Part shown: positions 1 to 54,722 of the stretch, one piece after another
How the letters are laid out: each line of letters starts with the position of its first letter
Numbering within the stretch: position 1 is the stretch's first letter
Assembly (NCBI GenBank): GCA_028692655.1
Contig: JAQUWY010000005.1
Location: 3,789 to 67,788 of the forward strand
Reading direction: 5' to 3'
Length of the DNA stretch: 64,000 nt
Source of the DNA: Candidatus Omnitrophota bacterium
GTDB taxonomy: Bacteria > Omnitrophota > Gorgyraeia > Duberdicusellales > 4484-171
Position numbers and translations under genes: made by a program
The notes under the pieces: generated by a model
Databases searched by the model: none
The model's input: the letters and a program-made list of their open reading frames with translations, nothing else
What the model was told of the DNA's origin: nothing

Positions 1-3000
1 TGAATCAGCCTCCAGCGAACAGGTAAGTGCCAGTTAATGAAATCTTCCATTACTTTTAATCCGATATCAAAAGCATCTTTATCACCTTCATAATTTCTTC
101 TATATTTTCTCCTGTATTCATTGATTACTTTTTGCTGTGCTTTTTCATTAGTCAACAAATCTAAACTGTCAACAAAAAGCCCCCTAATATCATCAGCGAT
201 TTCCTCAGATACCGCCATTAAGCTATGGTATTTACTTATTAAAGAATCAAAATCAGCTGTTCTTTCTGTTTTCTTTAATCTCAAGGTAATCAACTCTCTT
301 GATAATTGCCTTAATTTCTTCTTTTTGCTGTTATTAAGCTTAGCCTCTATTTCTTCTAATCTCTGCCTATAAGCGGGTGTTTCTCCCCGTTTTAAGCCAA
401 AAATAAACTTCCTGAAATCATCAAATCGTTCAGCTTCAGCTTCTTCTAATTTGTCCTTAATCAATTCTACCAAGTTTTGAATATGAATCGGATAGCGCTT
501 AGCCACATAATGGAAATTAGTATCTCTGTTGAATTCGCCCTGGTTTTCATCTTTGATCAAGCTAAGTGACTCAGCCATTGTGAAATAATAAGGGTTAATA
601 CCTCCGGCTGAGTGGAATTGAGTTCTGCTTAATTTTCGCTCAAAGCCTTCTAAGGCCGGTTTATTTCTAAAGTAATCTCTCATCCAGTCTAAAATTTCTT
701 TACGTACTCTTTTATCTTTAGGCTTAGGAATTCTTAGAGAGTGACGCTTGTTAATAACCTTTTCAAATTTATTATATTCAGCTACACTCATATATCCTTT
801 TTCAAGGCCCTCGCGCCGTAAATTCTCTAAGAATTCATCTTTATAAGTTATTCCTAAAGGATTTTTTCTCAAGGCATTAGGCTCCTCAGCTTTATCGTCA
901 TATAATATTACCCTTAAAGTTTTAGCTAATTCGCGCCCGCCTGAGCCACTCCATCTAAAAAACCAGCTATTTTTAAATCTTCTTCCGTGTTTTTCCTCTA
1001 ATTGATCTTTTCCCACTTTGTGAGAAATAATGCTGCCTATTATATCTCGGAACGAAAACCAAGTTAAAGGAAGCAATAATAACCAAACTATTCCGCCAAT
1101 AACAGCTGTTCCTAAAGCCATCGGTATACCGAATACTGTTAACTTCAAATAAGCAAGATAGATTATCGTCGCCAATAGAAGGGTGTTATAAAGAACCATG
1201 GCTACGTTTATTGTTCTCCAGGCAGCCTGGCCTCTTCTAGTCTGCAGGTCTCCGATAGTAGCCGGCGCACTTGTCGCACTTGAAGATTCTGAAGAAGCTA
1301 TGCGCTTTTTATCTAAAAACTTGTAAGCAGCAAAGCTTATGGCTACTGCCGCTAAGGCAGCTACCAGGCCATAAGCCAAATAACCAACTACACTAATGAT
1401 AATAAGCGGAGCGATTATAGATAATTTATCTCTTAATATCGGCTGCACTATTAAGCTATTGATAGTATTCCTTAAAAGCCTTATAAATGATTTCCAGCCA
1501 GTTCTCCAAATAACATATTCACCTTCATTTGTTCTTACTTTCCTGTCAGAGACTTCTTTCATGACTTTGGCTATTGCCAGCTTATCATTCTTGCTGCCTT
1601 CCATCTCTCCCCGGACTTCTTTAATCCTCTTTAAAAATGTTTTGATATCTACTGTATCTAAATCAAGAACGGTGCGCTCTTCTTTGGTTTCAGGGCCGGA
1701 AAGAAAGCCTAGTTCCGTAAATGGCTCTTCTACATACCTGAATAAATCATCGATATCTTCCTGCTGAAGCACATCTGATATACTTCTGTTTCCAAATGGC
1801 TTGATATTCTTAGCCCTAAATTCATCGTGTTCATTGGCTTCAAACTGGATAAGAGCCATAATGATAAATGCTAAATCACTTACAAAGCTATCCATTGCTT
1901 TAGCCGCTTCTTCAATCACTTTTCTCTGGTCTTCAGTTTTATCGGCTCTCTTCTTAGCCAGCTCAACCTGATAATGCCAACGTATAAGCTCGGTCATCTT
2001 AAAGGCATAACGTATAACCGGTGAACGGCTCATAAGCATTCCTAGGCCTTTGCTGGCGCTCCAAGTCTGGCCATATATTTTTTCAAATACTAAGTATCTT
2101 AGACCATAACGATATGGATTTTCAAAGCTCTTATCTTTACCAATCCATTCTTCTGAAGCTGCATTATTAATCTCATCTTGCTCAATAATTCTCCAATCAT
2201 CAATACGTACTTCTATAGTCTCATCCTTTTCTTTTCGCTTAATAGTATCTTGATATGGCACGATATGATATGGATGGATAAGAAGCTTGTTAGTGAACAT
2301 ATCAAAGATGTGATGCTTCATCATAATGGTTAAATCCGGCAAGCGGTCTCTTATTGCTTTTATCGAGTCATATTCTTTGATATATCTGTCAATTATCGGC
2401 TCAAATTTCTTCTCAACTATTTTTAAAGGAATCAAGAAATTAAGAGCGTTCATCTGGGCATCCATGTTAGAAGCAAGCAGCTCTTCAACTATTTTCCCAA
2501 GCTCATCTAAAGTAATCCAGCCTTCTTCTAAGGCTCTCATTACTAAGTCATATACTGCCGGCGCATAAGCACCTGAAGACATATGCGGCAATAAAGGTAC
2601 TTTTTTACTATTAACAACAACAGTAGCAACAGCAACAGCATCTTTAAATACCTTTATATCTGTATCTGGTTTTTTTATTAATTTTAACAATAAATTTAAT
2701 CTTGCTTTCCCGTTTTCTACTCTCTTGACTAACCACTCGCCTTTGTCATCTTCCACTGAGCTGCTTTCAAATGTAATTTTATTGGTATTAATACCTGCTT
2801 TATTAACATCATCTATATCCAAAAATCCTTTCTCTCTTCTCAAGGCTTTTATTTTATCTGCCTGGCCGCGGCCTAAGGCATCTACCAGCTCTCTATCAGA
2901 AGCTCTGTTGATATTCAGTTTTCCGGCTGCGCCCCTTATAGCTCCGTCTTTAACTCTTCCAATAGCAAAAGCATGCCTTAACATTCTTACTATTAAAATA

Positions 3001-6000
3001 ACGAAAGAGGCAAGAAAAACAATAATCGGCCAATAAGCCTTGCCTGTAATTTTAATTTCAGTTACTCGTCTCTGCCACCAAGAGCTATTATCTTTTTCAG
3101 AAGTTGTAGAATCTTCGACTAATATTTTATTGCCAAGAGCGATATTTCCATTTTCTGCGATAGCTATGCTTATACCTTGATCATCTCTTAAAATCTCAGG
3201 GCTATAATCAACTCCCGCGGCATCTTCAAAACTCCTTAATGGTATACCGAATACACCATTTCTAATTTTGTCATGATATAGCCACCAGATGAATCCAGGG
3301 GTTTGCTCAGGCTTGGCAATACCTCCAAAATCTTCTTCCTGGCTCCACTCTCTTCTCTGCCATACCAGGTCGCCATATTGATAGATACTAACTGTAATTT
3401 TTTCTTCAGGAAGTAATGCCTGCACTCCGCTATCAACACTAAAATCTACATATCTGGCGAATAAAGCAAAAGTGCTGTCATCGAACTTGATCTTAAAAGT
3501 TTGCATATAAGGCTGTGAATTTTCTGCGTTACCAATAAGGCTTTGAGCTACTTGATATACATCAGATGAAACTTCATCTTTTAAAACCGAATAAGGAAAT
3601 CCTGTAGCATTGATCATAGCCACCTGCCATTTAGGTGTTTGAGCATCACTGTGAAAAACAACATTGGCATAAGGCCTTCCGTCTAAATGAAGGATATAAC
3701 CTCTAGTTCCTTCAAAATGTGTTCTGTGTTCATCAGATTGATAAACCAAATAATTTCCAATAAAGCGCAAGCCATTAGTTTCAGCTGCTACTGTATTGCC
3801 TTCATAGTCCTCAAATTTTTCATTACCAGCTATGTATTCATAAGTCGAACTTCCTTTAGCAATTCCCAAGTGAGTAGTCCCAATTTCCTGACGCGGTAAG
3901 CCAGAACCATTTCCGTTGTCACCGTTTGTCAAATCAAAGAAAGTAATATACTCTGGATCACCTTGGCCGAATCCATCCTCGCCTATACCCTTAAACCTAG
4001 ATTTAGTAACTACTAGATGGCCCAAATTATCATTTGCCTCTTGTCTTGTGAATAAAGAGTAGAAGCGTAATTGATCTGCCTCAATTATATTAGTGGTAGA
4101 AAGTGCTCTGGCCAAAGTTTTAAGTTCATCATATGTATAATCTGCTGATATAAAGTTAGCTGTTCCGTCATCATCTATTCTAAGCAGTATTCCTTCTTTA
4201 GTTGTATGTTTAACAGTTCCTTGATCATCTACTCCGGTGGTCTTAGTAACGCCATACAAGCTTTCATTGTCCTGGCCATCTGCGTCCTGGCCATTTGCAA
4301 TTGTAGTTATAGTTAAATCAGGTATGCCATATGTAGAGTATCCGTCGCCAAAGAACTGATAAGTTTTCATCCCGCCAACAGGAACATTGCCTTTATCATC
4401 TACACCCCACATACCCAATAATCTTCCTTGCTCATTCCTTAGCTCTTGTTTATCTTGGCTGATCACCCTGTATTCACCGGTAACGCCGTCTTTACCTAAA
4501 AACTCATCATGTCTCTGAGAAAGAATTCTCATTTTTCCCTCAGCTATTTCAAGAGTGCTTAACCAAGACCTGCTCATAGCACCGGTATTATCATTTAATA
4601 ATTCAGTTTCAATATCCGAAAACTCAACAATTTCTAATTTTTTGTTATCTTTTTCACTTTCTTTATAATAATTTCCGTTACCATCGGCAAAATATGCCTG
4701 ATCAGCATTGTTTGTAGAAAGAATTCGTAAGTAAACATTTAATTCTTCTATTTCTTCTTTATTTTCTTTATAGTAGATTACATTACCGTCAGCTATATAT
4801 AAATAAAACTTCTGCAAGCGATAAGTGCGAGCTGAAGTAGATATTTCTAAACGGCCAAGCTGAACTTCGCTATGAGACTCAAACGTATTTGCTTCAAATT
4901 CTTCAACTGTCTCTCTGATGAATCCTTTGTTGAATTCATCAAGTATCTTTTCATCTCTTGCCGGCCTTAACCTTTTTATAATACCAAGGAGCTTATCTTT
5001 AGTATCATTTTTAGTCTCGCCTTTATACATATCGTGATGGCCTTTGTAGATCTGCTCTAATATTCCGTAACGGCTTCTTACTTCTCCAAAGAACTTGTTA
5101 TTATATACATCGAAGATCAAGGCTTCCTCGTCAGTTATAAATATACCTACTGATAAGATCTCATTCTTTGGCTTGCCTTCTTCATAAACATGGTCAATAC
5201 TACCGATTTTATTATTATCATCATCATAAATTATAAAACGGATTCTTCCTAAATCCTCATTAATCTGGGCTAATTCTCTTCCGGTAGCCTCATCAAATAC
5301 TGATTTCCAATATTTTATAGCCTCTTCACCTTGCAAAGCGGTGATAGTGTATGTTAAATAAGGTTTTCCTAAATCTTCTGTTAGCTTTCCGTATAACTCT
5401 TTTTCTTGTTTCTCTAACCACTCTTTTAATTTTTCAATTTCTTCTTGATCAGCGTCTGTTCCTTCTACCGCCTTGAATATACGCTTGGCCTCAGTTTCAT
5501 CCCATTCATCTCTTTCATCTTCATCCCATTCAAAAGTCTCTCTAGCCGGAACAGCGCCTGCCTCATTAATCTTATTGATAATACCTTCTTCAATACTGTA
5601 GCGCATAACCCCGTCTGCATTAAAAACTTCATCCCGTACTGTCTTCCCAGTTTGAGGGTCAATGGTCTGATTACGAACTAATTGCTCTGTTGAATTTTCA
5701 AGGTAATTAGCCTCACTAGTCTTTACCCAATAAACAACATTTGCTGTACTTAAATCAGAAGTAACATTTACTTGTTTTCTATCTCTATCCCGCAAAGTAA
5801 TTGCCCTAGTTTTTGTATCTAGCTCATAGTAAAAGATTGCTTCAGGATTTTTTAGTGTTTCTTCACCAACCTTAACTTCAAAATCTTCATCTGAAAGCTT
5901 CTTAATAACAGCGAGCCCGTCGAACCCTGTACTCCTATCAGCCAATAATCTACCTGAAATCATAGAATTTTTGATATGAAGCTCACTGGAAACTAATTCA

Positions 6001-9000
6001 TCTTCAACTTTTACCTCAAACCAAATCATGGTCTGGGTTCTGCCTTTGACGATTAGAGTAGTATCAGAAGGAATTAGATTGCTGGTGTCTCCGCTTAAGA
6101 TAGCTTGAGCTATAGCAACGAAGTTATTGTCATCAATGGCAACAGTTTTAATCTCTGTGTCGAATTCAGCTATGTTAAGTTTCCAGAGGTCGCTGAAAGC
6201 TACTTTATCATCGGCTACATATAGGATCTCTGGTTTGGCGCCTTTCTTAAATACGTGGATTTCGCTGGATTGTGAATCACCGCTTACGGTGTTATTGGCT
6301 TGATTGTATTGAGCGGCGTCAAACACTTCAAACCATACTGCTTTACTATCACCGGCAACATGGGTACCTCTAACTTTTAGAACCGCGGTTAGTGATTTGC
6401 TGGTATCAGCTTTTAGAGTTGTTGGGTTGATAGAGTAGATAGCAATGATATCACCTACGTTAGCATCGAAAATACCTGCTATCGGTAAGCTGTTATCAGT
6501 TACATATTCGATATCTCTTGAACCTTTAGTATGTATTTCACTTGACGCTAGAACACCGTTGATCTTTACGTCAAACCAGATCTTGGTTTGGGTTCTGCCT
6601 CTGACGGCTATGGTGGTGTTTGAAGCGGTTAAAGTATTTGCTTTACCGCTTAAGATAGCTTGAGCTATAGCAACAAAGTTAGCATTAGTAACTTGGGCGG
6701 TTGCTATTTCAGTGTTGAATTTATCTGGGTTAAGTTTCCAGAGGTCGCTGAAAGCTACTTTATCATCGGCTACATATAGGATCTCTGGTTTGGCGCCTTT
6801 CTTAAATACGTGGATTTCGCTGGATTGTGAATCACCGCTTACGGTGTTATTGGCTTGATTGTATTGAGCGGCGTCAAACACTTCAAACCATACTGCTTTA
6901 CTATCACCGGCAACATGGGTACCTCTAACTTTTAGAACCGCGGTAGAAGACCCGACAGTTTCTCTGCCGCGTACTTTTAATACTACTTTTCTTGCTTCAG
7001 CCTTATCCGGTAATAATGTGTGTGGATCGTTGGGATATATGGAAATAATCTCTTTGTTTGTATCCAGCAACTCTGAACCATAAAGATAAATTTTGCCATC
7101 TTCATCCTGATAACCATAATCGGTTATTGCTCCGTCGCTTCTGCGTAATACGTTTAGCTCGTCTCCGTTTACTAAAATAACTACCCGGCTCTTATCGGCA
7201 GCAACCACTTCTGTTTCAAGCGTTCCTTTTTCTTTTAAGGTTAACTCATCTAATATTGCTGATATTAAAGGTTTATCAATTTCGGATTTTTCTAAGTTCG
7301 ATTTCCACAATAACCATTTTCCTTCAACTCTTCCAACCGGATAAGCACCTTCTCCGTCAATAATCAACACATAATTATTATCTTCTGTAGCGAGTATTGC
7401 CCTGCCACTGTGCTTTTCAATAACCCTTGCCGGCTTACGGCCGTCTTTTTCAACCAACCTGCCGCCTTCTAGGGCATGTTCAACAGCAAATACATCTTCC
7501 CCTTCCTCAAAATCATCAAACTCCGGATAAAGCCAGATTTTTCCTTCTTTATCCACGTATCCATATTCAAGAGTTAAACCTTTAATCCCTTCAGCCCTGT
7601 CTCCAGAAATTACTTCTACTTCTCCGAAAACTTCTTTATCGCCCAAGGTAGCGCTGTTTACTGTTATAAGTACAACATTATCATTCAATAGTTTTTCTTT
7701 TCTCTGGTAATAATTAGTAGCTGTGCCTCTCTCAGCTAAATTTCCTTCCGAAGCAGCTGCTTCAAAGACAGCCTTAGTATAGCGCCTTACTTGATACCAA
7801 CCTGCCCAGGGACCTGTTTCAATTTTCTCAGTAGGCGCTAATATCGCCTGCATCTCTCCTTCGACATCTCTTTCCACATATCCAAAAGTTACATTTTCTT
7901 CAACAACCCAAAACTCAACATGGGGATGCGGCCTATTAGTTATTCTTTTAACTGCTACGGCATCATCCTGGTAAATAAATACATAATTCCCTATGCGAAC
8001 GGCCGAAGTTTCAATCAAGCCTCTCGCGTGGCTTTCTACCAGCCAATCTATGGTTTCGAACTTATTGTTGCCAAGGTGGTACCTGTCATCATCGCCCTGC
8101 ACAAAGTTTACTCTTTCTTCTATCTCAAGTAACAGAGGGCTTTCGAGGTCAAGCTTGGTAGGATTCATTATCTGCAGTTGATAAACTTTCCTGCCTTTTT
8201 CATTGATATCTCCCAACACTACGTAAGGCTTTCCGTCACTCCGTGTTCTCTGATCTTCAATCCAAAATCCCGCGTACCTGCCGTGAGAAAAATCGCGTTC
8301 TTGTAAAGCTTTAAGCGCGCCTTCTTCACTGTCAAACTCATAGACTTTACCCCCATCTAACCAGGAAGTGACTCTGTATTTACCATTTTTGTTATTAAGA
8401 TATATTTCACTTTCCGGAACACCGGATAAGCCTTTTACCCGGCCGCTATTAATTCTGTATTTTTCTATTTTTGTAGCACCGTCTTTGCTGATAAAAACAT
8501 ACCTATATTCCCCTTTGCTATCTTCAACAACACTGCTGCGCCATCCGGAATCCGTACCGCCTTCAAAATCAAGTTTGCCTAACCTCTCCTGAAATTCCTG
8601 CCAGCTCATCCGACGGACTATTCCGGAAACGCTGATTTTAACTTCGACTGGTTTAAAATAGCTATATGTCCTGCCAGACCGCCAGTAAACAGTCTTGGGG
8701 CCAAAAGCATAATCAAAATTAAGCCTCGCTACTAAAGCCCCATCTCCGTTAAAACTTTTATATTTATTTGACCTAACCTCAAAGATGCCCTTACCTTGGC
8801 TTCTTAAAATACGCATTGTATAAATCTGTCCGTAGATTTCTTGTTCGTAAGAGTAATCATATATTCCCGCTTGGGATTCAACCTTTCTTGCTTCCTTTCC
8901 TAAAACATCATCTATCTTGCGGTTAACCCGTGGGGTGTATCCGCAATAACACCAATTTGCCCAGTAATCAGAAATAATCCCTCCGTTGGATGCTATAACC

Positions 9001-15000: not shown

Positions 15001-18000
15001 TTATGGATACTGGCAACAGGCAAAACAAAAGTAAAAGTCGTTCCGGGTGTGGTACGGACTCCTGAACTTATCATTTTCAGCGTCTGCATCATAGCCGGAA
15101 GCGCTAATACGGCTTCTTTGACTTCTTTTATCTGTTCGATATCGCTGAATTGGTGGGTTAGAGCGGCATACGCTACTCTTTCACCCCAGACATAACTCCC
15201 TGTATTCTGAGTTACATTGTATAATAACCGATGATTTGCCCCTAACACATCCAGTATATATCCCTGTACAACATTTACTGCCTTCCCAATGGCGCTTTTA
15301 TCGCCTTGGATTCCTTCTGCCGGATTTCGCGTAAAACGTTCTCTCATTAATTTTTCTAAAACACCTAAAATAATAACCATATCGATGGCTTCATAATAAT
15401 AGTCTTCAGCAGTATATCCAATAACACCAGGCTGATGATAAGGATCTCCCAAGGCTGCTCTTGATACACTGTCTATACGGTTAGCCCATCTTTTTGTTTC
15501 TTCTTCTAAAGTTACATACAATTCTCCTATATATTTACGCAAAACATACCCAACCTCAGGCTCACCAAGCATTGGCAATTCTTCAATTATGCCTTCAGTG
15601 AGCGAATCTATTTCAATCATTACTTCGGGCACCCGATAACTTTCAGCTAAACCAAGCCCCCTTGATTCACCTTTGCCTGAAATTCCCAAAACGAGCATTG
15701 CCTGGCGCCCGTCATACCCCGCCGGGATTAAAAGCTTCGCGGGTAAACCTTTTAAGTTGTCGGTGATAGCAATTCTAAGTTTTCCATTTCTGTCTATAGA
15801 CATACTGGCTTTGATTACAAGTTCATTAAGCTGTTTATTAGCTTCAGCCTCATCATAAGCGTTTCTTAAAACATTGGAAACAGCGTTCTCCAAAGCTATT
15901 GGATCAACTCGAATTAAATAATCTTCATTCAGTTTTTTATGGACTGCCAAATTAGCAGGACGCCCTATACGCGCCATGACCCAAGCGTTTTTGATAATTC
16001 TAATTACTTCTCTTATATTGACAAGCTGCGTTGTATCCTGGCCGGTAAAATGCCCATATCTATTATTCAAAATTCTTAAAACATCTTCAAAACCTTCCAG
16101 GGTTTCTTGGTACAAAACTTTAAATTGCCGGTTTGCCGTTAACCTCTTTGCTAATTCAGAAAATTTATTCTTCGCTTGAGTGATCGCTTTTATTATCCTG
16201 TTAAACTCTTCTTTCCATTCATCAACCTGAACTCTGCTTACAGGCTCACCCGGTATTATCGCCTCTTTAATTTGATTATGCAGTATTCTTAAAGCTCCTC
16301 GGCCGGCATATCCATTTTTAGCAAGAACGTTCTTTATCCGCTTTAATTCCGGTAATAAATCCCTAAGCTTGGTACGCCTGCCTAACTCTTCTATGCTATC
16401 AGTAATTACTCCAATCTTTTCGGCATTAAACAGCGCTATTACAATTTCGGTTGCCGCGCTATGTTCAAGGCTTCTTATAGCATAAGCGATTCTTTCCGCT
16501 TCTTTATCTGTAACCTTATCGCCGTCGGCCGCTGTATCTTTAACCTGCCCGCCTAATCGCTCAAGGAGCTCGCGGACAGAACTTTTATAACCGGTTATCC
16601 AACGCGCGGCCAACACATATAACCCAGAAGAACTTAGCCAGTCTTGCAATTCTTTAACTTGGCTATGCTCTAAACCGCCTATAAAAGCCAAAAGCTCGTG
16701 GCGAATAATCCATTCTTTTGTTTTTAAAAGCCACTGGTCCCTTAATTTTTGCTGGTAATACCACTTGGTATTATTAAACAAATTGGAATCAAAATACAAA
16801 GCGGTTGGATTTCCATAATTGTCAATACGCATGCAAGCGCCGCATTCAAGTCCGTCCACCTCAAATATCCAGCCCTCTCTTAACAATTGCGATAACTCCT
16901 CTTTCTTCTTCTCTGCAAGCGCTATTGCCTTAGCCATTTCTGGCGTAATATTCCCCACTGGCGTACCAATTTTGAGAACTAATCCTATTAATTCATCTAA
17001 TAAAGCATCGTAATTGCCTATTAATATTTCTGCTTGAGAACTGCCAAAGCGAATCTTTCGTGGCCCTTTATATTTGTTCAATAATGCTTCTATTTCTTCT
17101 TTTGCTCTCCCGTCAGCTGAAGAATCTTTGGCTGACTGTGTTAAACCAGCCTGCTTAAATAATATTCTCCTGGTAAAATCAAGCAACATTGTTAAAACAG
17201 GTATAATAAACCACAGCGGATTAAGTAAAAGGCTATTGGCCATCATCCAAATAATAATAACTGCCGCAGATATAGCTATTGATAAAGAATGGTTATTATT
17301 TTTTTCTACATTCGGATAGCTCAAAGGAGAAGCGTAAGGATTTATTTCTTCCGGTTGTTTTTCCTCCCTTCCTTCTTGTCCTCTCTTATTTACCTGTGCC
17401 CGCAAAATCCTATATGCCAAATAGCCTAAGCCTAAAACCACCACAGCAGCTATTATATAAGATAAGGCGGTTACCAAAGCCCCAGCAGATGCTCCAGTCA
17501 TACCCGCCTCTCCGGCAAAAGCAGTATTAGCTGCACTAACAACACCTAAGCCAAAAAAGACAGATGCTGTTCGTCCCAGAACACTTTCCACAACGGGGCC
17601 TGCTGTCTTCAGAGATTCATTTAATTCCACCTGACTAATTTTAGGTATCCGGTCTAAATCCCTACGGTTTTTTATGCTTCTTTTTATAAGTTCTCTGGCA
17701 GCATAGTCCGGCTGGCCGCTAACAAAAGGCAGTATCCCTTCAAACCCTTGACGGATAGGAACAAGATTCCAGTTATCCGGCTGTGTTAAGGCAACAACAG
17801 CAGCCAGCTCCTCAATGGTTAAAACTTCAACTATTCCTTCGCTAATACGCCCGCGCTTTTCTTCTATAGCCTTAATTTCGGCCATAGCTTTTGACTTATC
17901 ATCATTGGCTTCATCTGTAAATATTCTTTTAAATAATTCTTCCCTTTGCTTTTCTTCTTCGGCACCGGCCTGTAGCTTTCCTATTATTACTATGGCTTCG

Positions 18001-27000: not shown

Positions 27001-30000
27001 TCTAATCCTTCTTCTCTCAAGCTCTGCCTTGTGCTGGTGTAAATACTTAATTCTGCATCCAGCCAATCTTTATCTTGCAAGGACATGTTAGCCTTTAGCG
27101 CCTTCACAACTTCTTCTATCCGCCAATCTAACCAAGCTTCTACACTAAAGACTTTAATGTCCTTTGCTTTTTTATCTTCGCCTCTGTACAATTTCAATCC
27201 TGCATCTGTATCTCCAATAAATTTAACATCCATAGCTCGTTGGAAATTGGCCAATTCTTTCTTAATATCTTCAAGGCTTTTATCTTTCCATTGATTAAGA
27301 AATTCTATGTCCTCGCCGGCTTTCTGAGTTTCATCATCTAAAGCGCTTCTAACCGCCGGTAGATAAATATCCCTTATAAAACTATCTTCTTCCTCGTGGG
27401 CTTTTCCTATAAGCTTTTCTATATTCTCTTGGGCTTCTGCTAAAGCTTCTTCTCTTTCTTTCAGCAGTTCAGCCACGCTATCAGAAACAGCCTGTTTATG
27501 TTCATCGTTGTCGCTGCGATTAGGGTTATAATCCGTCAGCTTCTTAACCTTTTGATTACGTAATTTGCCTGAAAGAGTGTCTTTTGATTTTTGCTTGACT
27601 TCCTCTAAGGAAAAATGCAGTAATCCTTTCGGTAAACTTAACCGCCCATCATCCTTAAACTCCCGCTTATAAGCACCTTCTAATTTTCTTACCCAATTAA
27701 TCTGTTCGCTTAGTCCACTCTCATTGACAGAAGGATTAATAAGCTCAAGAATCCGCATTACTTCATCTTTCTTTTCTCCACCCAGTAGAGCCTCTAATTC
27801 GTCTATGGTTTCTATATCCATTGACGGCATTTCCGAAACGCCTTTCCCGTAATTATCTTTAGCATAGGCCATCTTGATTTCATTTATGGCTTCGCCATTA
27901 GCACCGGCACTGCGATAACCGTTAAGACTTGAATTAACATACATCAGGCTTTCTAAAAAAGTTTCCGAGTCAGTTCCATTTAATATAACATCCGAATAGG
28001 CACGTAATTCTTTTTGCTTGCTGCTTACCTGTAAATCCTTATCTAAAGCATGTCTTGTCTCATGGCGCAATACTGACATTGTTAATAATTTTTCTACCTC
28101 TTTTTGTGTAACCCTACCTTCACCTCCATTGAGCTTGCGCCATTGTCCGGTATATTCGCTATTTTTTTCTTCATTCAAAAATGCGGCAATATTGCCAGCT
28201 GTTTCCTTTATCATCTCAATAAAGATGCTTATTTCATTATTGTGCGGATTATATTCGCCAAGCTTATCAGTATTGCCATTCTTCACTTCAACTTGGACTT
28301 TCCTTGAACCGTCAACATCAAGCATAGAAGTTTGTTCTGCCCCGCTTAAAACCCTCTCTGCTAACTCCTCTAACTTATCATCTACACCTGCTAACTCCTC
28401 CAATTCTCCGGTATCAGCCAAGCGAGCTAACCGAACGGCAGACCGCATACCTTCAATTAAATTTTCTACGCCTGTGGAACCTAAATTTGCGGTATCCATA
28501 TGCAATAAGCTGTTAACATCAGTGCCGGAGAGCTGGCTGAAAAGTCCTGCCTTAGCTTTAGCCGCCTGAAAATCGCTTCGTACACTGCCGGCACCATTTA
28601 TTCCTGCAAGGCGCGTGAGTTTTCTTTCGGATAAACTGTTAAAAGCTCCCAATAAAAGCAAGCCGCCTCCGCTGTTATAGCCCATAGAAACTATATTGCT
28701 AATAGAAAATGCACGTAGGCCTTTAAAAAATCCTCTTCCGAGCAAAGGTGTTGGATGTGCAGTAGCCCAATTTATACGTTTCTGTAATTTGTTTATACGC
28801 TCTTCTATTTGTTTCACATTGCTGAGGGCATCTTCATATTTATTATTTTCTAAAGAAGCCATTATTATCCTGTTTAATAAATATTTTAAGTAGTCTATAT
28901 TTTGCTTATCTTCGGTAACAGACATCCACCTTTTAATTCTTAAAACGTTCCAACCGCGTATTTTTTTATCTGCCGACAACCCATATCTTTCCTGCATTTT
29001 GGCGGCTGCAGCCAAGCCTCTGTTAATAGAAAACCTGTCGGCATTGCCTGAGCCGCTTAACCTTATTAATGATGTCCGTAGGGCTTCTCCTTGTGAATCG
29101 ATTTCGTTTTCATCCAAAGGCCCCCTGCGGTTTCTCCATATAGAGATACCTGCTACTAATGCCAATCCGCCAAATGCCAACAGCGTAGGAATGAGATAAT
29201 TTTCTCCTGAGTCTGGCTGGTTAGGCATATCTTTGAAAGCCTGGTTTAAAGCCAATGGCAACAATGAAAGAGCATAGCTAGCTGATGTTGTTGAAGGATA
29301 GAGCGAAGATTTATACACTTTTTGCTGCAGCCCTTTTACATATTTATCAAGCTGGCTGACACTCATATCGGAAACTTTTTTGATTGCCCTACGAGAAAGG
29401 ATAAGACGATTCTGGCGGTCATTGATAAATCTTGCAACAAGGTTATCGTCCTTATCTGATTCGGCCTGCCGTCCAAGAGCCCAGTTTAAGCCTTCAGCTA
29501 AAGCCTGCTTCACTTTTCCGTCACGAAACACCATGCCAGAGACGAATTCCGTTGGATAACTCATAAACACATCTCCGACCAAACCGTCGGCCTGCAACCT
29601 TTTTTGTGTTCCCTGGTCTAAAACAGCAAACCCTCCGGATATAGCTTCAAGGCTGCCAAAAGAAGAAACAGCGGGATTCATTAAAGCTGCGGCTAAATCA
29701 GCCGTATCACGACGCTGTTGTATAGTCATTGTTTTATTCTGGAAAGCTTCGTTTATGATATCTATTGCCTGCTGGGCATATTGGGGAGCGGATAGGCCTT
29801 TAGCTAATTTGCTATTTGATCCGGTTATAGCGGTTTGAATATCTGTTAATACCTGGTTTGCTGATGCATTAGGAAAGTATGCTTTTACAGTTTGAAATAA
29901 TTCAGGTGAACCGCGTGTACCATTAGAAAGCATAACGGTATCCATCTGCCTGTATATTTCGGCTTTATCTTCAAAAGACAATTTATCACTCCCGGAAGCT

Positions 30001-33000
30001 TTTCGCGCGGCTTCGACTGTTTCTAAAGCCTTATCCACGGTCTTTGAAACCCTGGCACTTCTTGTAATATCTCCTTGAACCTGGACAGTGCTTGAAAGCA
30101 CTGTTTTAGAAAAGCCATCAAATATCCTGGCAACATCAGCGATACTGTAAGCGTCTGAAATAGAATTTTTACCGGTTGTGCCATTTTCATACACCGTGCC
30201 GCTAACAACCTTAGCCGCTTCCGCTTTTAACCAGTTTGCCTGCGCCCGGCTGATAGCCGATACTTTACCGCCGGCTTCTTCTATGCGCCCTAATATGTGC
30301 TGTGAATACTCAGCGATATCCTTACTTACTTTCCTGATTCTGTCTTCCCCTTTTACATTATAAGGAGATGCTTCTAGATCAGCTATATACTTATGTTGTA
30401 TAACTTCATTGAATATATTTTCTATGTATTGCCGTTCAACAGGATTGGCGGCCCGGCCAAGCATTTCTTTCAATGGCTCAATGAGCTGGCGCGAGTAACC
30501 TGCCTCTCGGGCCTGATGCAAAAGAGCCTGAGAAGTCTTAATAACTTCTAATCTCTGAGAATTTCTTAACAACTCTTTTGTCTTTTCCCTGGAGCCTCCC
30601 TGTTTACCTGCGGTAGCTTGATGTATTCTCAGTAAATATTGTCCGGAGCTGGTAATATCCTTTATTTCTTTCAAAGTCCCTCTATCAGTATTATTGATAT
30701 TCAACAAGTTATCTCGATCATAAAAAACTACTCTCTGGCCTGACTTAACTTTATCGCGGTCGTTTCTGTTGATTGCCTGAAGAAGCTGTGACTCTGGGAA
30801 TTTTTCACCGTCGGCAATAATTAAATCACGGCCAACCCTGACACCATCTTTAACTTTATCTTCAAAACTATATCCTGTGGCAACTCGAATATTAGCTAAA
30901 ACAAACTTACCGGCATTTTCTGCCAAAGAAAGGCTAACTATATCATCAGGTTTTTTACTGCCATATACTACCTCAATTTCCTTATCTTTAAATCTTTCTC
31001 TTATCGCCAGTTCCAACTTAGTCATAAGCTTTGGGTCTTCCACTATAAGCAGCAGCCCATTTTCCTTATTGGGCCTTGCTTCTAGTCTTTTCATAATCTC
31101 ACCAACTCTGTCTTTTGAGCCAACCCTGACCACCTGTGCATCAAACTTTGTCTCGCTAATACGCTCAACCGAGCGCCCTAAATTCATTCTTAATAACATC
31201 TCTATGCCTTCGGGCGTACCGGTAAAGCCTAAAGTCGAAGCCGTAGGCTTAAACTTCAGCATTTCCGATAAAGTAGCTTGGTTCAACGTCCGGGTGGTAG
31301 ATAAATCCTTGATTTTTAAGCCCTCTTTTTCTCCTAAATAAGCTAAATAAGCCGGGTCGCTTAATACACGGTCTGCCTGCTCAACTCCGCCTTCCCAAGG
31401 AATAATATCCGTTTTGCCTTTTCGCTGCCCAACACCATAATCTACGCCAAAGCGGCTGCGCTCAGCACGTATATAAGCGTGAGCTAAATACTCATTTACC
31501 CCTTCTGCCTTCATTGCTTTTTTTGCCGCTTTGTTAACCACAAATTCACCGCTTTGTTTATCATAATAAAGGCCTGGCTTACTTTGAGACTTAAGAATCT
31601 CCTTCTTATCGGTGTTATTTTCATTTTTGAATAAAACATCCCGCACAAACTTACCGGCTCTATCCAGCTCAGCTTGTATAGCTTGTGTTCCCGCGCCTTT
31701 TTTATCTAAAATCCCCGCCAACTGTTCAATAACAGATACCTCGCCGCCGCCGACGATGTAACTGCTCCTATCGGAAAGCGGAACGTGAATTTCATCTACG
31801 CGTATGCTATCTTGGTTGTAAACGCGCTGTATGAAATCCCGATCAGCGCTGTTACGCAGATGGCCCAGAGTCGGGTGGTCAAAAACAACAATCAACGAAT
31901 TGTTTCTCAAGGCGTGTTTTACTTTTTGAGAGTTACTGCTCCAGTTACGACCATCAACAAGCTTTAATCCGAATTTTTCTAGTAATTGGTTTATTACAGG
32001 GTCCTTCATCATCTTATCGACCTCACCCGCACGCACAACCCAAAGCTGATTAGCTTCGGGAAACATCGCCTTTCTCATAATCATTTCAACTGCTCCGCCT
32101 ACAGTCTTACCGCCGCCGGCTTCTAACCCAACATTTTTATCTCCCAACAAGGAAAGAGCCATGCGGACTTGTTCTAAACCTTTCTTTCCGAATTCTTGCA
32201 ATTTAGCTGCTCCTAACTCTTTACCTATAATAGCATAAGCTTCATCCATAATCAGGCGTAAAGCTTTTCCTACCTGTTCTCCGGTAACAGGTTTGCCGTT
32301 TTCGAATATATTTTCGATACCTTTTTCTCTACCACCGTTTTTAAATCCCTTAACAACTTCACCTAAAAATGCACTATGGTCGGTGCCTTTCTTAAGTTCT
32401 AACTCTAGAGTGCCGTTTCTAACATTTAACAACAAGTTTTTCGCATCTTTACTTTCTAACGTAAAAACTTCTTTTAAAACACTACGGCGTTGAAAATAGT
32501 CACCTACCCCTTTATCTTCCTTGAATAGTTTTACTGGATTGCCTTGACTATCCTTAAGTTCAATTACGCCTTCTTTATCATACTGGTTTTTATACTCTTC
32601 CCACTTTTTCCATCCGTCTTTATTGAATTTGCCGTCTTTACCAAATATTTCGCCATCAAGATTACGCAGGCCTATTTGTATGCGTATATCGCTGGTACGC
32701 ACCCCGATCCTGCGGCCGTCTTTTAATCTAACTTCAATGAGCCCTTTATCTCTAACTGTATAGTGCCTTAAAAGCTCACCCTGGTCAGCCGCTTTATTCA
32801 AAATATAGTTCATAGCTGTTTCTCTACTGGGTATACCAAGCAAAGGGTTGTCACTTATATATTCAATTGCCCCAATCTTTTCAGTCCTAGCTAATTCCCT
32901 GTCAATAATTCTTTGCCGAGGTGATATTGCTCTGGCTTTCGCTTTATTTTCACTCTTTTCTATATCGAATTTGTATCTTTTATTGACAAAATCTTCGGCA

Positions 33001-36000: not shown

Positions 36001-39000
36001 TTATAACTACCTATAAAATCAAATTTTCCGGTATCCTGATTATCAAAATTCCATCCAACAAAACTCTTTATAGTAAACCAAGACAACTCACTCCATAACC
36101 TATTTTGTAAATACGGTTGATAAAGAGCATGATTAACGGCTGTATCAATGGCACCAAAAGTCATCGCAGTCCTACCGGCTCCAAGCGCTATCTTGCCGAC
36201 TGTTGGCAGAACTCCTGATGCAGTAGGAGTTATCCTTGCCATTGCTCCGCCAGCTGCTGCTGCCGCGGTTATTGTCGCAAAAACTAAAGCGTTTTGTTTA
36301 TAGCTTAAAACATCTCCGTTAACTGCCAAGGAGCCCAGATTAACCACACCAGTCCCTGCAACTCCAACTTGCAACGACCTCTGCAAGCCGGCCCCAACCG
36401 CTGGTATCTTACCGGCACCATATATTAAAGCAGGTAAGATAACTGCGATAGTAGTATTTGTAAACATATTCTGAGTTAAATCATTACCTTTATAATAATT
36501 ATAACCGGCAGTGCCCGTCGGAGCAGTTAATAATGCGGCAACTGTATATCCCGCCCAAGTTTTAGCTGCTACTGAAGCATTGGGTAAAATTTTTGCACCG
36601 ATAGCAGTAAAAGGCCTGCCAACATTTGTTAATATTCGGCCAGCGCTTCCTGCTCTGCTAAGAGTGTTTGCGATAGCCCCCTCGGTTCCAACAAACGGTC
36701 CTAACACAATAGCTGCTGTTGTTGCCGCATCAAAACCTGCCCGGCCATCAAACCAACAACCGCTTTGCCAATTCTTATTAGGATCCGTGCCTAAACCATA
36801 CTGCCAACCAGCACTTCTCCAATCCTCCCCCCACGCTAATATATCCATAGCAGCGTTGTCGTACCCGAGCAACTTTGCTCCTCCGTATCCACCCCAGCTG
36901 ACTATTTCGGCAACAGGAGAGGTAAGTATTCGGGTACCCCGGATAAAACTATATTCTATATTAGCTAATGTTTCACCTACATTGTAAGATATGGTGCCAG
37001 TTATAGCCTCTTCCGCAGCTTGACGCTGGCTCGCCAGCCTTTGAAACAAATCAACTGTCTGCTGCATCACCGCAGAATCTTTACCTAATATGCTCGCTGC
37101 GAATTCAGCGTTTTCAGCCCATTTTTGGTTAAAGATAGCGAGTGTTTCTCTATTAACTTCGTAATCAGGCCGATATTGCCAAAACACTGAATATGCCGCG
37201 GATTCTACTTCCGCGTTTGCTCTGTATGCAGCCATATCCGCGCTTTTACGGTATGCTTCTCCGTACGCTTCATACAAAGACGCACCTTTTTTGTTTTCAC
37301 TTTGAAGAATACTTAATAAATTAGTTGCTATTTGTAATTCCGCGTCCGCTTCCACTTCATTGCTTTTTGCCTGAAGGTAGCTTTTCTCAACTGTTTCCAT
37401 CGCTTCACGTCCAACGAATAAATGATATATGGTGCCGCTAGCCCAAGCACCCCAAGAATCAAAAACTTCATCGTAATTTTTTTGGGCAGCTTTCATGCTT
37501 TTATTTGCGGACCTCCAATGAGTATAAGCTCGTCCATTCCACTGCTTAGCAACATCAAGCTGTAATTTCGCTAGCAGCTCTTTTGCTTCTGAATTTTTTC
37601 CTGCAAGAAGGCTGTCTTCTATTGCTTTAGCTCTAAGCCGGAAACTATCCCTGTCTTGACCTTCCAGCTGATTGTGCTTGTTGTCAATAATACTTTGTAA
37701 AACCCGCAAAGATTTAGCCATTTGAGCTCTGTTTTCAAAGTGTTTTTTCAAAGCAACTTGCATATCATCTTTAGTGGCATTTTTCCCAATATTTAGTTTG
37801 TTTCTTAATTGCTCAAAAAATTGCTGAGGGGTTGTTTTATCTATATCTATACCCATAGCCCTTGCTAATTCAGCGTTATCATGACGAAAACCTATAAGAT
37901 TTTTCTCATATTCCGCTCTTAAAACACCGAGTTTCTTTGTCCCTAGCAAAAGTTCTTTCCCTGTAGCTAAGTTCCAGCCTCGACCTTGACTATCTAAAGC
38001 AATATTGCCGTCAACGGCTACAAATTGCAATTCACTGTTTTTAAATAATATTCGTTGGCTCTTTACTTTGCCTTCGGCGTCTATAGCAACTATTCTTTTA
38101 AAGTCACCTCTTCGTAATATCGAAAGTTTCTCTCCTCCGCCCAGGTCTTTCAGCTCTACGGAAAGCCGTTTACCGCCGGCAAATTCATTAAGAATATACC
38201 TGCCTTCTGCCTGCTGCCATTCACCTTTGGAGTTCTGGTTCATTATTTGCGGGACATCCGAGCCGTTCGCCTGGAAAATTCCTAAAGCGTTATTTTCTCC
38301 TAAAGAAAGGTAGCTTGTGTTTTCCGCTTTTGGATTAATCACTAAAGACGTGCGGGTGAGTTTACCGTCGGGGCCAATAGTTGTAGAATAGGCAAGGCCC
38401 TTGGTTGACACATCAAAAGAACCGTCTTTATTTTTGGTGGGAACAGGTATGTTTGTCCATTGGGCTAAATTGCTTAAGGCTAAAGAGTTTATATCCAACT
38501 GATTGATTGACATATTCCCCTGTTTATCAATTTGCGGCTGGAAAATAAATCCTGTTATACCGCTGGCAGCGTTAATCCTCCATTTGTTATCCTCGCTTAT
38601 CACCGAACCTTCCAGCTTTCCTTCTAAATTAAGACGGGGATGGATGTTGCTTTCGGTTATCCGCGGCGAAGACGCTGAAGCATCTTTACCAGCTGATTTG
38701 CTTACCAATTCCGGAATCAACGAGTCTCCTTTAGCAACTAAAGTAGCTACCTGGCTGAATAGTTGCCCATCTTTTCTGTATTCTGTTATGCCTACATCTA
38801 TGATTTCTCCTCTCTTGATAACTTCGCCCAACTTCTGACTGTAGCTTCCCTGGGCATAAGATAAATCCCAATCTGTCGTAATATTTTTCTGGGGGGTGTT
38901 TGCCTGAAGAAAACTGTCGGTTTTACTTGAGATGTTATCGGCGGTAACATTATCCGTTTTAAACATAGTTACGACATCAAGGCGTTTAAGTTTTCCTTCT

Positions 39001-42000
39001 GTTAAAACTCCACTTTTATCAAGCTCTGAAAAAAGAATAGGTTTTTTCTGGGCATAATCTTTAATAAACGCCGCGTCGCCATAGAACCTTCCGCCTTCGC
39101 CAATTCTCAAGAAACCCTTCTGGTTTGCTTGCACTATATGCCCCAGCCAGGTATCAGGAGAATAATGGACGCCGTAATTTTTATCAGCATATTTAGCGCC
39201 TGATTCTTCGACAACATTAAACCGCGGAGTCTGCTTCCACACCGCACCATCAGAATAAGTGGGAGAAAAGTCGGCTTTGAAAATAGGCTGCCCTGTTCGG
39301 CTGTCTCTTCCTATAGGAGAAAACAACATTCCGGCGCTCCCTTCATGAATATTGATAGATGAGCCGTACTTAACCGGGGAAATCCAATCTAACACAATAT
39401 CTTTTCCTAAACCGGCAGCACCCGAATGCGTATTCTGCTGCATTTTATCAATATCTGAGGAAAGAAGGTGAGAGTGAGAAAACATTATAGTATTCGAATC
39501 AGTAATATATTTGAGGCTTCCTAACGCCGGTCCGGTTAGCAATTTACCTTTAGAGAAATCAATATCAACCTGCAGTGTATTGCGGGCAATTTCTTTAACC
39601 CGTGTTCTGCCCGGGTCTATATTATCTAAATTAATTCCTAAAGTTTTACCGAGCCAAGCGGATAAATCAGCCCGGCTGGTTCCCTCTAAAGTCTGGCGTA
39701 TGTTGCCGGCGCGATGAGCGTATGAGGTAATGTTTTTACCTTGAAAGACATTCTCAGAAAGCATAGTAGTATTATTAAATTTAGTAGTCAGCTTTACACC
39801 CGCGGCCTTATCATCAAAAACAAGCCTTTCTGTACGGGCCTGGAATCCATTGATAAGCCTGCCGGGCAGGATTTTTCCTTCAAGTGAAAGGCTATTCTGG
39901 CCTAATCCGGCACCGACGAGTTCGCCGTTTTCAACCTGAACCCTGTTGAGATTAATTCCTACCCCATTCTTTAAAAGTACTGTATTGGGGTTAAGCGTAG
40001 AGTCTAATAGAGATTTCATGCCTCCGTCAGCAAAAACATTTTTCTTAATAACCGGGCCCTTACCCTCAAGAGTTAGCTGATTAATCCTACCGGTATTATT
40101 TTTTATGTTTAAATGTTCTGTGGGCAAAGTTGACATAAGCCCGCTGGTAATTGTGCGGGATATTTTTTTGCCGCTTACATCCATAGTAGAAATGCGCCAT
40201 AGACCACCATAAGCAGAATCACTTACAAGGCGATATTGTGAATTGCCTTTAGGATGTACAGTAAAAGCACTTTTAAAATCTTCCCCAAAAATACGGGAGC
40301 CTCTGTCTGCATTAGAAGGTTTGCCAAACCCTCCCGTATTAGAAGGTTCAGCCAGAAAATGCGTCTTGTCAACAATCGTTTCTTTAACTATTTTTGGCTT
40401 ATTAGTAGAGAAATGAGAAGAATTCTCCCAGTTAATATCCGGAGTATTAAAACCATCGGCGCGCATTTTAGCGGCATTATTATTATATTGACGCGCTACT
40501 GCTGAAGGACTCCATATGTTCCAAGCATTTTCAGTACCGTGCTTAGTCCAGTCGTAAGTTGCTACTGTTTTACGGCCGGCGGCCAAACCTACGAATAATC
40601 CACTGCCGCTTTTTACCAGTGAACCGGACTTATTCTTTTTTGCGTCGTCATTGAATGGTAAATGAGCTAAAGAGTCACCAACTCTTAAACCTAAGAACGG
40701 CTGTAAAGGTGTTGTGTGGGCCTTGCCGCTCATATTCCTGAACTCTGTCCCAAGGCCTGAGGTATTAAGTTTGATTTTGCCGAATTCATTGCCGGAAGAG
40801 GTTCCGGAAAGTTTAGTTAAGTTATAATTTACATCTTGTAAAAATGTAAGCTGGGCATTTCTGCCTTTTATTTTTATCCCATTGCCGGCGTCAAGCTCCC
40901 AACCGCCTGATATTTTTACCTGGTTCGTTTTTTGGTTCAAAGGGCAATTAGGGCCGCTGCATCCGGAATCTTTCTGCCCCAGTTTATCTAACCCTGTAAG
41001 CTGGCTAAAGCTGTCAGAAATGGTTCCAAAAGCAGTATTGCCCATAAACGGATTTGAAGGATCAAATTTCTTTAAATAATCGTAAGCAACGTAAACTCTG
41101 CCTTTACTAACCGCGGCCCAATTGGTTTTTAATTCAACAAAGGGGTTAGCCGCGGGCGTTTTATTTATCGCCATAAAAACATCCCCTGTCATTTGGCTCT
41201 TGCCAATTGAGAATTCCTGATTCGCGGCCAAGCGGCCTATTGAACCATAACCCATTATCCCCTGTTGCTGCTTGGATAAACTGTGCATATGAGGAATGAC
41301 CAGCTTATCTTTGTATTTGCTGAATGGCTGGACTCCGGCGCCGCTGCGGGCCATAAGAGTATTCTGAAAGTTAGCCCCGAAAATTTTAGGGTCAAAAATA
41401 GTATTGCCGGCTAAAACTTCTAACCCGGTTCCTAAACCGGCAGGTTTAACTGCTAACGGTGTATCCCAGCCTTTGCCAGAAACCATTCCTTGAGTTAATC
41501 GCCCGTTAGCTCCAAATTGAGACACGGTCATATTGACCCTGCCCATATCCCGCACAATGGGGTTCCATATAAATTGATTGTTTTTAGAAAAAGTAAACTG
41601 GCTAAAACTGCCTAATTGATGGTCAACTGATTTCCAATACTGGTTTATTCCGGGCGCTCCGCCTGAATAACTATTTGCGAAAGGGCTACCGCCGGGTAAA
41701 TAAAGCCTGTTGGCTAAAGCGTCAACTACTTGATAGGGCGCGCCGGATGAAAATTTAACTCCATTGGCGGTAAATTCAGGTTTATTAAGGCTTAAGCCAA
41801 GCACATGCGCATTCCCATTGTCTGATTCAATAACCGCGGTTACCTGCGTGCCTTGGTTTAAAGAAAAGTCTCCTCGTAATCCGGATTCCTGAAGCACTTT
41901 TCTGCCCATGGCGGATTCCAAACTGCGGCCGGCATATTCGGTAGCTGTATCAAAATACGCTTGGATTGCTGAACGTGTCTTTTTATCCATACCCGAAGCA

Positions 42001-42731: not shown

Positions 42732-42828
42732 TTTTAAATGTATATATAAAATAAAGGAAGAAAAAATTCCCCCTTACCCCCATCAATAAGACTCGCATTT
42801 TTTCAAGTTATGAGCGAAGAAAAAATGC

Positions 42829-43159: not shown

Positions 43160-43215
43160 CGGCCTCAAAAAAAAAGAGCCGGATTACCATTTAGAATTTC
43201 GGTAACCCGGCCATC
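43160..43215 (-). terminator. Hairpin + U9 tract immediately upstream of the SD/ATG of the GIY-YIG gene.
   Basis: Minus strand: GGCCGGGTTACC-gaaattctaaat-GGTAATCCGGCTC TTTTTTTTT GAGGCCGT ATG. Confidence 0.45.
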
Positions 43216-43254
43216 CTTTTCTTGTTTAACTTATACGCAAATCTTCACAAATTA

Positions 43255-43400: not shown

Positions 43401-43639
43401 AGATGCTAATGCACTAAAAATATAACATATAATGTATATATAAGTCAACAAAAAAGTGAAGAAAATCGATGATTTTGTAAACGGTTCGAAAAGGGTTGGT
43501 TTGAGTTTTACTTTGATACAAACAAAATATAACACACAGCTGTCATATTATAAGCCCTTTGAAATATATTGTTAACTATTATGGACGAAAACGCTCGTAA
43601 CTTCCTTGAAAGCTTATATTTGTGCAAATGTTTTGTATA

Positions 43640-54715: not shown

Positions 54716-54722
54716 AACTTTA

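Follow-up and report, generated by a model that had tools for sequence, protein, structure and literature searches.

The 5' part of a probable giant membrane-protein gene beside a Tad-pilus locus in an Omnitrophota bacterium, preceded by a putative cyclic di-GMP riboswitch

The stretch of DNA analyzed here, the window, comprises 64,000 nucleotides (nt) from a Candidatus Omnitrophota bacterium (assembly GCA_028692655.1, contig JAQUWY010000005.1, positions 3,789 to 67,788 of the forward strand). From base 42731 down to base 1, its minus strand is occupied by a single giant open reading frame (ORF) of at least 14,243 codons, identified by the lack of stop codons, an ATG, uniform codon usage, and collinear homologues. 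Every gene between 42.8 and 64 kb lies on the same strand, and these include a set of Tad-pilus genes (51062..58956). Between the Tad genes and the giant ORF, a leader region carries a putative riboswitch for cyclic di-GMP (c-di-GMP) and a short conserved motif. Our reading, in which we have considerable confidence, is that the window holds the 5' 42.7 kb of one genuine Omnitrophota gene, downstream of a Tad locus, for a multi-pass membrane protein with more than 14,243 residues. The gene would be subject to a putative c-di-GMP ON switch, and the protein would contain a SecA-like motor and be displayed in part outside the cell, together with the Tad pilus.

A scan for TAA, TAG, and TGA showed that the minus-strand frame is free of stop codons from position 42773 to base 1, i.e., over 42,773 nt, and that the second-longest open stretch in all six frames of the window measures 1,983 nt. 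Given the base composition, stops would be expected at about 7% of random codons, or roughly 1,000 times in 14,257 codons, but none was observed; the other two minus-strand frames of the same DNA contain 61 to 156 stops per 1,000 codons. A first-pass annotation, made by a model from the sequence alone, had proposed exactly such an uninterrupted minus-strand frame of more than 14,200 codons, with a product continuing beyond the window start. The scan bears this out: the in-frame stop count between 1 and 42731 is zero, there is no split into several genes, and the frame is open to base 1. Recoding of stop codons was considered and rejected, since zero in-frame stops of any kind are present. The annotation was also correct in stating that the frame is missing from the ORF track, which between 1 and 42800 lists solely plus-strand ORFs of at most 183 amino acids (aa). 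The giant ORF is absent because the track does not include frames that extend beyond the ends of the source. Finally, the ATG at 42729-42731, which had been put forward as the start, is indeed the first one after the upstream stop and yields a product of at least 14,243 residues. Its use is supported by the relatives, whose homology to the N terminus starts at residues 4 to 20.

Codon usage in this frame correlates with that of the neighboring genes at an r of 0.77 to 0.87 in each of fourteen 3-kb slices; for the shifted frames, the corresponding values are 0.06 to 0.45. Likewise, the G+C content decreases from the first to the third codon position (GC1 > GC2 > GC3) along the entire frame, in all 14 slices. 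Because both measures are uniform, and neither gives any sign of a frame change or a noncoding stretch in the 14 slices, we conclude that the whole stretch is coding in one frame.

The leader of the gene contains several regulatory elements, all on the minus strand. A full-length c-di-GMP-I riboswitch aptamer is located at 43198..43391 (Rfam RF01051, 58.2 bits versus a gathering score of 35, E value of 8.7e-9, model positions 1 to 87 of 87). Its second hairpin carries a 122-nt insertion (region 43300-43340) whose predicted fold is a long, nearly perfect helix; the inserts in the aptamers of relatives vary in length, the aptamers as a whole spanning 76 to 194 nt. A terminator hairpin, GGCCGGGUUACC ... 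GGUAAUCCGGCU followed by U9, occupies 43167..43212, with the 3' strand of the aptamer as its 5' arm, and is contained in the minimum-energy fold of the region (z = -6.8). Because the aptamer 3' strand (GGCCGGGUUACC) pairs with GGUAAUCCGGCU, aptamer and terminator are mutually exclusive, so that, following standard riboswitch logic, read-through is predicted when the ligand is bound. The same overlap of aptamer and terminator was present in 14 of the 15 related aptamers examined; the exception, in locus L036, which was left out of the folding, shows just a short run of U. At 28 nt before the aptamer, a match to the consensus marks a candidate sigma-70-like promoter (TTGACT-18-TATATT, TG-extended, 43419..43448), and locus L082 has TTGACA-17-TATACT at the equivalent place. 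The likeness to the c-di-GMP-I (GEMM-I) class thus extends from the full-length aptamer, scoring above the gathering score, to the terminator platform that overlaps the aptamer 3' strand. The differences are the size of the controlled gene, here more than 42 kb, and the 122-nt helix inserted in the second hairpin. In other bacteria, riboswitches of this class are typically found with pili, adhesins, and surface proteins.

A second element, the leader motif TGGGGGTAAGGGGGAA...TATATATA, lies at 42736..42783 on the minus strand, about 45 nt before the start codon. Its consensus reads TGGGG(G)TAAGGGGGAA, followed about 18 to 20 nt later by TATATAGG(T), with invariant G runs. We found it in 34 places (the window and 33 related ones), about 40 to 55 nt before the start of a long ORF. 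Examples are L075:12365-12410 and L080:7527-7572. No conserved RNA pairing was detected in the motif with RNAalifold; its candidate functions are those of a promoter read by an unknown factor, an ops-like or standby site, and a site for protein binding. In 31 of the 34 places a riboswitch is located upstream of it, at 63 to 163 nt in the relatives and at 417 nt in the window. The larger spacing in the window is due to a small GIY-YIG ORF (42829..43158, minus strand; Pfam GIY-YIG, E value of 1.9e-16) that sits between the terminator and the motif; the spacing in the relatives examined is too short to accommodate it. Judged by this difference in spacing, the GIY-YIG ORF looks like an insertion into the leader of the giant gene, and both the riboswitch and the motif are intact in the window despite its presence. 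The possibility of a group I intron carrying the ORF was rejected, as no intron match at an E value of ≤1 was obtained in 42400-43800.

The association with long ORFs was assessed by an Rfam scan of 41 related loci and the window (42 sources, 733 kb), which gave 45 riboswitch hits. Within 600 nt downstream of 37 of these hits (36 of 44 without the window) there is an ORF that either measures at least 1 kb or runs off the locus. The remaining 8 lie upstream of the pilin array, before small ORFs, several of which have 59 codons. The best-scoring model for most of the relatives' aptamers is the GGC variant (RF03167). In the window itself, no second riboswitch was found upstream of the pilin genes (56000-64000). 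Second riboswitches in relatives are located at L019:4178-4289, L026:4060-4145, L013:1388-1495, L028:3304-3393, L027:132-240, L057:2832-2970, L059:2811-2948, and L078:8784-8872; the second copy precedes the pilin array in the first five of these loci. The ORF behind a second copy often has 59 codons, the size of an Flp pilin.

We give even odds to the more general proposition that Omnitrophota giant genes beside Tad loci share a dedicated 5' region. This would consist of a sigma-70-like promoter, a c-di-GMP-I (mostly GGC-variant) ON riboswitch, the invariant GGGG-TAA-GGGGGAA...TATATAGG element, and the start codon, with a second copy of the riboswitch before the Flp-type pilin genes in some genomes. 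Neither the riboswitch nor the leader motif is mentioned in the three papers on giant genes that were searched (bioRxiv 10.1101/2023.11.21.568195; PMC10066038; bioRxiv 10.64898/2026.06.07.730766), and a literature search combining riboswitch with Omnitrophota, Omnitrophica, or Velamenicoccus returned nothing relevant. Hence, while the kind of gene has been described already, the new point is that the giant gene and its relatives stand directly behind a c-di-GMP riboswitch, which is followed by an invariant leader motif.

Turning to the product, a Kyte-Doolittle scan revealed 20 hydrophobic stretches along the full length, equivalent to about 24 to 27 helices, with several stretches fitting two or three. 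The first of the features is an N-terminal signal-anchor (residues 32-55; 42567..42638, minus strand), the most conserved part of the N terminus in relatives and consistent with the signal or transmembrane (TM) segment that had been annotated at the start. It is followed by a low-charge, Gly/Ser/Asn-rich region (residues 56-1500; 38232..42566, minus strand), predicted from its composition to be extracytoplasmic. This region has no Pfam domain match, and homologues with 28 to 34% identity occur in L026, L007, L033, and L082. Composition changes in zones along the protein. Charge is low and Gly, Ser, and Asn abound in residues 1-1500; a charged, mixed alpha/beta zone spans residues 2750-4500; an acidic helical zone covers residues 5000-5750, and a highly charged helical one residues 6750-8250; the zone of residues 11250-13250 is beta-rich and acidic. 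Near the window start, the hydrophobicity scan shows a cluster of several TM helices (residues 13760-13902; 1026..1454, minus strand).

Residues 10566-13227 are probably located outside, since the preceding TM (residues 10542-10565) has six Lys/Arg residues before it and none after it. This segment includes a two-copy tandem duplication of a beta-rich module of 555 nt (185 aa) at 5965..7075 on the minus strand, the copies being 97% identical over 239 nt and 72% identical over 162 nt (73% amino acid identity). The duplication appears to be recent. It is the sole sizeable repeat or internal similarity in the 42.7 kb, and the protein is otherwise almost repeat-free; the tandem Ig-like repeats of the first-pass annotation are therefore not supported as stated, this one two-copy module being all that was found. 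Cysteine is scarce, with 18 occurrences in 14,243 residues. Three of them are consecutive (residues 9877-9879, about 13095-13103) and follow a TM at residues 9839-9862.

Pfam searches with 4,900-aa and 1,000-aa pieces, and phmmer searches against PDB, identified only a thioredoxin domain and an HATPase_c domain. The thioredoxin domain (residues 6456-6542) forms a module with a preceding TM (residues 6392-6420; together 23106..23558, minus strand). It matches Pfam Thioredoxin with E values of 3e-18 to 8e-19 (66 to 68 bits versus a cut-off of 23.5) and PDB thioredoxins with an E value of 2e-14, and has a WCGPC active-site motif at residues 6466-6470 (CGPC at 6467-6470), in full agreement with the annotated TM and CGPC thioredoxin module. 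Because three Lys/Arg residues are found before the TM and none after it, the thioredoxin domain probably faces outward. Two additional CxxC motifs are present at residues 7442 and 8630. The second domain, of the histidine-kinase or GHKL ATP-binding type (residues 8943-9032; 15636..15905, minus strand), is weakly supported: the HATPase_c match (E value of 3.4e-6) reaches 27.9 bits versus a cut-off of 26.4 and is partial, covering model positions 2 to 81 of 111, and in a 1,000-aa piece cut at residue 9000 it scores 17.6 bits. By eye, the N-box and G2-box are visible and the G1 box is degenerate. This domain corresponds to the annotated GHKL ATPase-like domain, which remains tentative. The possible GH-A hydrolase is not supported: no Pfam or PDB match to a clan GH-A glycoside hydrolase was obtained at an E value of ≤1 or 0.1, and what can be seen is, by eye only, an IGEIG-like motif near residue 10955.

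A further domain is a divergent SecA-like ATPase motor at residues 3500-4110 (30402..32234, minus strand), recognized by its motifs, an AlphaFold model, and Foldseek. It contains a Walker A GGGKT (P-loop GLEAGGGKTV at residue 3541), a Walker B DEIH (VDEIH at 3645), a GFTGT (3836), and a Q..R..R motif, and an 11-sequence alignment shows invariant K43, D147, E148, Q486, and R490, corresponding to the lysine of Walker A, the Asp-Glu pair of Walker B, and Q..R. An AlphaFold (AF2) model built on this alignment had a mean predicted local distance difference test score (pLDDT) of 78.8 and a predicted template modeling score of 0.75. In a Foldseek search against PDB, the top 28 matches were all SecA or SecA2, with a best E value of 5e-17, TM-scores of about 0.5 to 0.6, and 620 to 685 aligned columns; other helicases of superfamily 2 (SF2) gave E values of 1e-8 to 1e-7 in the same search. 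Helicase_C was touched by 3 of the 11 homologues. Residues 3500-4110 are, according to the model, SecA-like in fold and motifs while standing outside the SecA sequence family, and West-Roberts et al. reported that the SecA-like module of other giants likewise falls outside the sequence family (bioRxiv 10.1101/2023.11.21.568195).

With SecA and SecA2, the predicted structure shares two RecA-like domains, an inserted domain at the place of the preprotein-binding domain, and a long helix that follows, and the Walker A, Walker B, GxTGT, and arginine-finger motifs are conserved. In contrast to these proteins, the sequence identity is about 15%, and the motor is embedded in a giant membrane protein whereas SecA is a soluble protein of 100 kDa. 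Furthermore, no similarity to the wing and two-helix-finger domains of SecA was detectable in the region behind the long helix. This region, located between the motor and the next TM, is a conserved all-alpha segment (residues 4111-4510; 29202..30401, minus strand) with 14 homologues. A model of residues 4040-4545 was all-helical (pLDDT 64) and had no fold match in PDB.

These features can be combined in a model for the expression and action of the giant protein. Transcription would start at the sigma-70-like promoter at about 43420-43450 and, without ligand, would halt at the terminator. Binding of the ligand would lock the aptamer helix and block the terminator, allowing RNA polymerase to enter the GIY-YIG ORF and the giant gene. 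The riboswitch would act as an ON switch, with the giant protein made at high c-di-GMP, the usual "attach" signal. The signal-anchor would insert the protein in the membrane, and the cytoplasmic SecA-like motor (residues 3500-4110) might help to thread the long segments destined for the outside through the Sec channel. Two regions, the N-terminal one of low charge and the C-terminal one rich in beta structure (residues 10566-13227), would then be displayed outside, where, judging from context and literature, they may act with the Tad pilus at the contact with a host or prey cell. Possibly, the outward thioredoxin and the cytoplasmic histidine-kinase-type ATPase contribute redox and signaling functions.

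Several observations weigh against this model. With respect to the protein, Pfam SecA_DEAD, SecA_PP_bind, and SecA_SW gave no match at an E value of ≤1, and in the profile search against PDB the best match, SecA2 (4uaq), was not significant (E value of 0.22). Because sequence models fail, the SecA assignment rests on predicted structure, and the annotation of a SecA/SF2-like P-loop at about 32.1 kb, confirmed at the level of the fold, does not hold at that of the SecA_DEAD family. The topology is a parity argument from the hydrophobicity scan rather than the output of a dedicated predictor, and the Lys/Arg residues around the TM at 4511-4532 do not favor the cytoplasmic side that the motor would need. 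No adhesin, glycosidase, or peptidase domains were detected in the 14,243 residues, so the function outside the cell is argued from context only. The gene, moreover, extends past the window start and its 3' end is outside the window. With respect to control, the aptamer, a putative c-di-GMP sensor, also comes near the GGC variant model (53.6 bits). In addition, the riboswitch in the window is set apart from the giant gene by the GIY-YIG ORF and 417 nt, three related loci (L038, L042, and L044) lack a riboswitch while carrying the motif and a long ORF, and the G-rich/TATATAGG motif could be a separate promoter.

The last three points are at the basis of the alternative that survives best, which we nevertheless consider rather unlikely. 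It holds that the riboswitch in the window controls the GIY-YIG ORF only, or nothing, and that the giant gene has its own promoter, GGGGGTAAGGGGGAA ... N18-20 ... TATATAGG. Two invariant blocks with a fixed spacing and without conserved base pairing would indeed be promoter-like. However, the blocks are unlike sigma-70 hexamers, good sigma-70-like sites precede the aptamers, and there is no U-run terminator after the GIY-YIG ORF. Furthermore, the motif stands behind a riboswitch and terminator in 31 of the 34 places, and outside the window there is nothing between the two to regulate. Such a tandem arrangement is sensible only if both elements form one leader, which counts against a separate promoter. 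We therefore retain the view that the riboswitch and motif together serve the giant gene.

A further alternative, improbable in our estimation, accepts the single ORF but takes its product to be a polyprotein that is cleaved during or after translation into many ordinary-sized membrane and soluble proteins. The heterogeneous domains, spread between TM segments, would fit such an organization, as would the record name of one homologue, P0009, a C39 peptidase domain protein. Yet searches of the 14,243 residues revealed no peptidase domain, and there is no Cys in residues 44-590 to serve a C39 site. A single multi-pass protein remains the preferred reading.

Relatives of the protein are few. An exhaustive HMMER profile search with residues 3451-4150 against 1.84 billion cluster representatives returned only 27 proteins, all of them fragments of large proteins of up to 7,803 aa, showing that the giant-protein family is rare but real. 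Of six homologues that were looked up, five are proteins from Omnitrophota metagenome-assembled genomes (MAGs), mostly flagged as partial, and the record names include "glucosaminidase domain-containing" and "C39 peptidase domain-containing" (P0009). Homologue P0001 (MFA7676793.1) is 81% identical over residues 2820-6363, and remoter homologues are collinear over about residues 2100-5300. Word-sharing protein searches with residues 1-1800, with residues 3481-4080, and with alignment A3 scored 0 of 8,000 candidates for each query. In metagenome scans, the last 400 residues yielded no relative, and the N-terminal alignment yielded a single locus, L082. In three relatives, the long ORF stops and an overlapping frame then runs to the end of the locus (L026:20215-20317, L033:15778-15982, and L013:17909-17990); these breaks may be frameshifts caused by assembly errors or genuine breaks. 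That the long frame in the window is itself an artefact, i.e., a chimeric or misassembled contig or genes fused by errors that delete stops, is barely credible: errors do occur in metagenome assemblies and the homologous ORF is broken in the three relatives just mentioned, but errors make stops and frameshifts and would not erase the roughly 1,000 stops expected, all 14 slices agree in codon usage and in GC by codon position, P0001 comes from an independent MAG and is collinear over 3,591 residues, the further homologues are collinear as well, and no repeats that could mislead an assembler are present except the one 555-nt duplication.

Giant ORFs are common in Omnitrophota and are described as having many TM helices and divergent SecA domains and as lying beside secretion or pilus loci (bioRxiv 10.1101/2023.11.21.568195; PMC10066038; bioRxiv 10.64898/2026.06.07.730766). 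The 39,678-aa protein of Velamenicoccus archaeovorus LiM is the type example, and peptides of the V. archaeovorus giant protein were 3-fold higher in attached cells (PMC10066038). Different thresholds for giant size have been used, namely, ≥10,000 aa by Nielsen & Lui, >20 kb by Seymour et al., and >30,000 aa by West-Roberts et al. At ≥14,243 aa and 42.7 kb, the gene passes the first two; as it runs off the window, the third cannot be judged. It resembles the Omnitrophota giant genes in phylum, in being one ORF longer than 10,000 codons with many TM helices, a divergent SecA-like domain, and few recognizable domains, and in lying immediately behind a Tad/type-II-like locus for secretion and pilins that includes class-III-signal-peptide genes. 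Unlike Archaeovorin, it has no glycosyltransferase, methyltransferase/SAM-methylase, glycosyl hydrolase, peptidase, NUDIX, or GGDEF domain in the 14,243 residues, although the unseen C terminus could hold some of these. Unlike the dockerin-type giants, it has no dockerin/TSP3 repeats in the same residues. A C39 domain was not found there either, and the protein differs from the described giants in possessing a WCGPC thioredoxin. The gene thus fits neither named subtype and belongs with the domain-poor giants of Seymour et al. and Nielsen & Lui.

A comparison can also be made with giant adhesins (RTX/Bap/LapA-like proteins and the giant ORFs of Chlorobium chlorochromatii), which are likewise very large and have a proposed role in cell-cell contact. 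Adhesins of the LapA type are controlled by c-di-GMP. In contrast to the protein in the window, which is almost repeat-free and has many TM helices and its own SecA-like motor, the giant adhesins have many tandem repeats and use type I secretion.

In itself, the gene is one more domain-poor example among the thousands of proteins with 10,000 or more residues catalogued for Omnitrophota, and it leaves the picture of these proteins unchanged. The control region is the part worth following, as it makes the regulation, transcription, and translation of genes of 40 to 400 kb accessible to testing. It would tie the expression of giant proteins to c-di-GMP, consistent with the PilZ genes after giant genes and the GGDEF domains inside them reported by West-Roberts et al. 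(bioRxiv 10.1101/2023.11.21.568195) and with the proposed attachment-dependent lifestyle. If true, one second messenger would coordinate pilus production with the synthesis of a very costly protein, its length ranging from 14,000 to over 100,000 residues, and would presumably do so upon contact with a host or prey cell. Likewise, the G-rich element could be a new signal for transcribing or translating such long genes, its possible roles being that of an ops-like site recruiting a processivity factor or that of a ribosome standby site.

The genes upstream of the giant gene support its placement beside a Tad locus. On the minus strand, the Tad region (Pfam T2SSF twice, Tad, and Class_IIIsignal) comprises a TadC-like gene (51062-51922) and a TadB-like gene (51950-52792), both matching Pfam T2SSF, a TadE/G-like gene (54723-56138), and an array of five or six small pilin-like paralogues (57012-58956), one of which reaches Pfam Class_IIIsignal. 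The TadB-like protein matches 80 loci among species-representative genomes, the best at 95% identity, and nearly all of these come from Omnitrophota MAGs or from MAGs labeled Planctomycetia that have the same gene order and are mislabeled. Together with the Tad genes upstream, these loci bear out the suggestion, made with the first-pass annotation, of an Omnitrophota-type giant gene beside Tad-pilus genes. The order is kept in the related loci as pilin array, TadE/G, TadB, TadC, and then a long ORF, with the pilin-like array conserved in 41 to 54 of them. Homologues of the N terminus of the giant protein are detectable downstream of tadC in at least 16 loci, and most of these ORFs run off the locus; in many others, this position is taken by a long ORF that also runs off the locus and shows no detectable similarity. 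An exact-sequence look-up of the TadB-like protein matched only a 2.4-kb contig. No tRNA genes were found in the window.

Compared with its relatives, the window has an extra 7.7 kb between tadC and the control region of the giant gene. This segment holds five ORFs of 657, 267, 356, 375, and 223 aa (43640-50242, minus strand), located between tadC and the riboswitch, none of which has a Pfam or NCBIfam match. An exact-sequence look-up of the 657-aa protein gave no match, and the five ORFs have almost no homologues in the 80 related loci. The block looks like a lineage-specific insertion.

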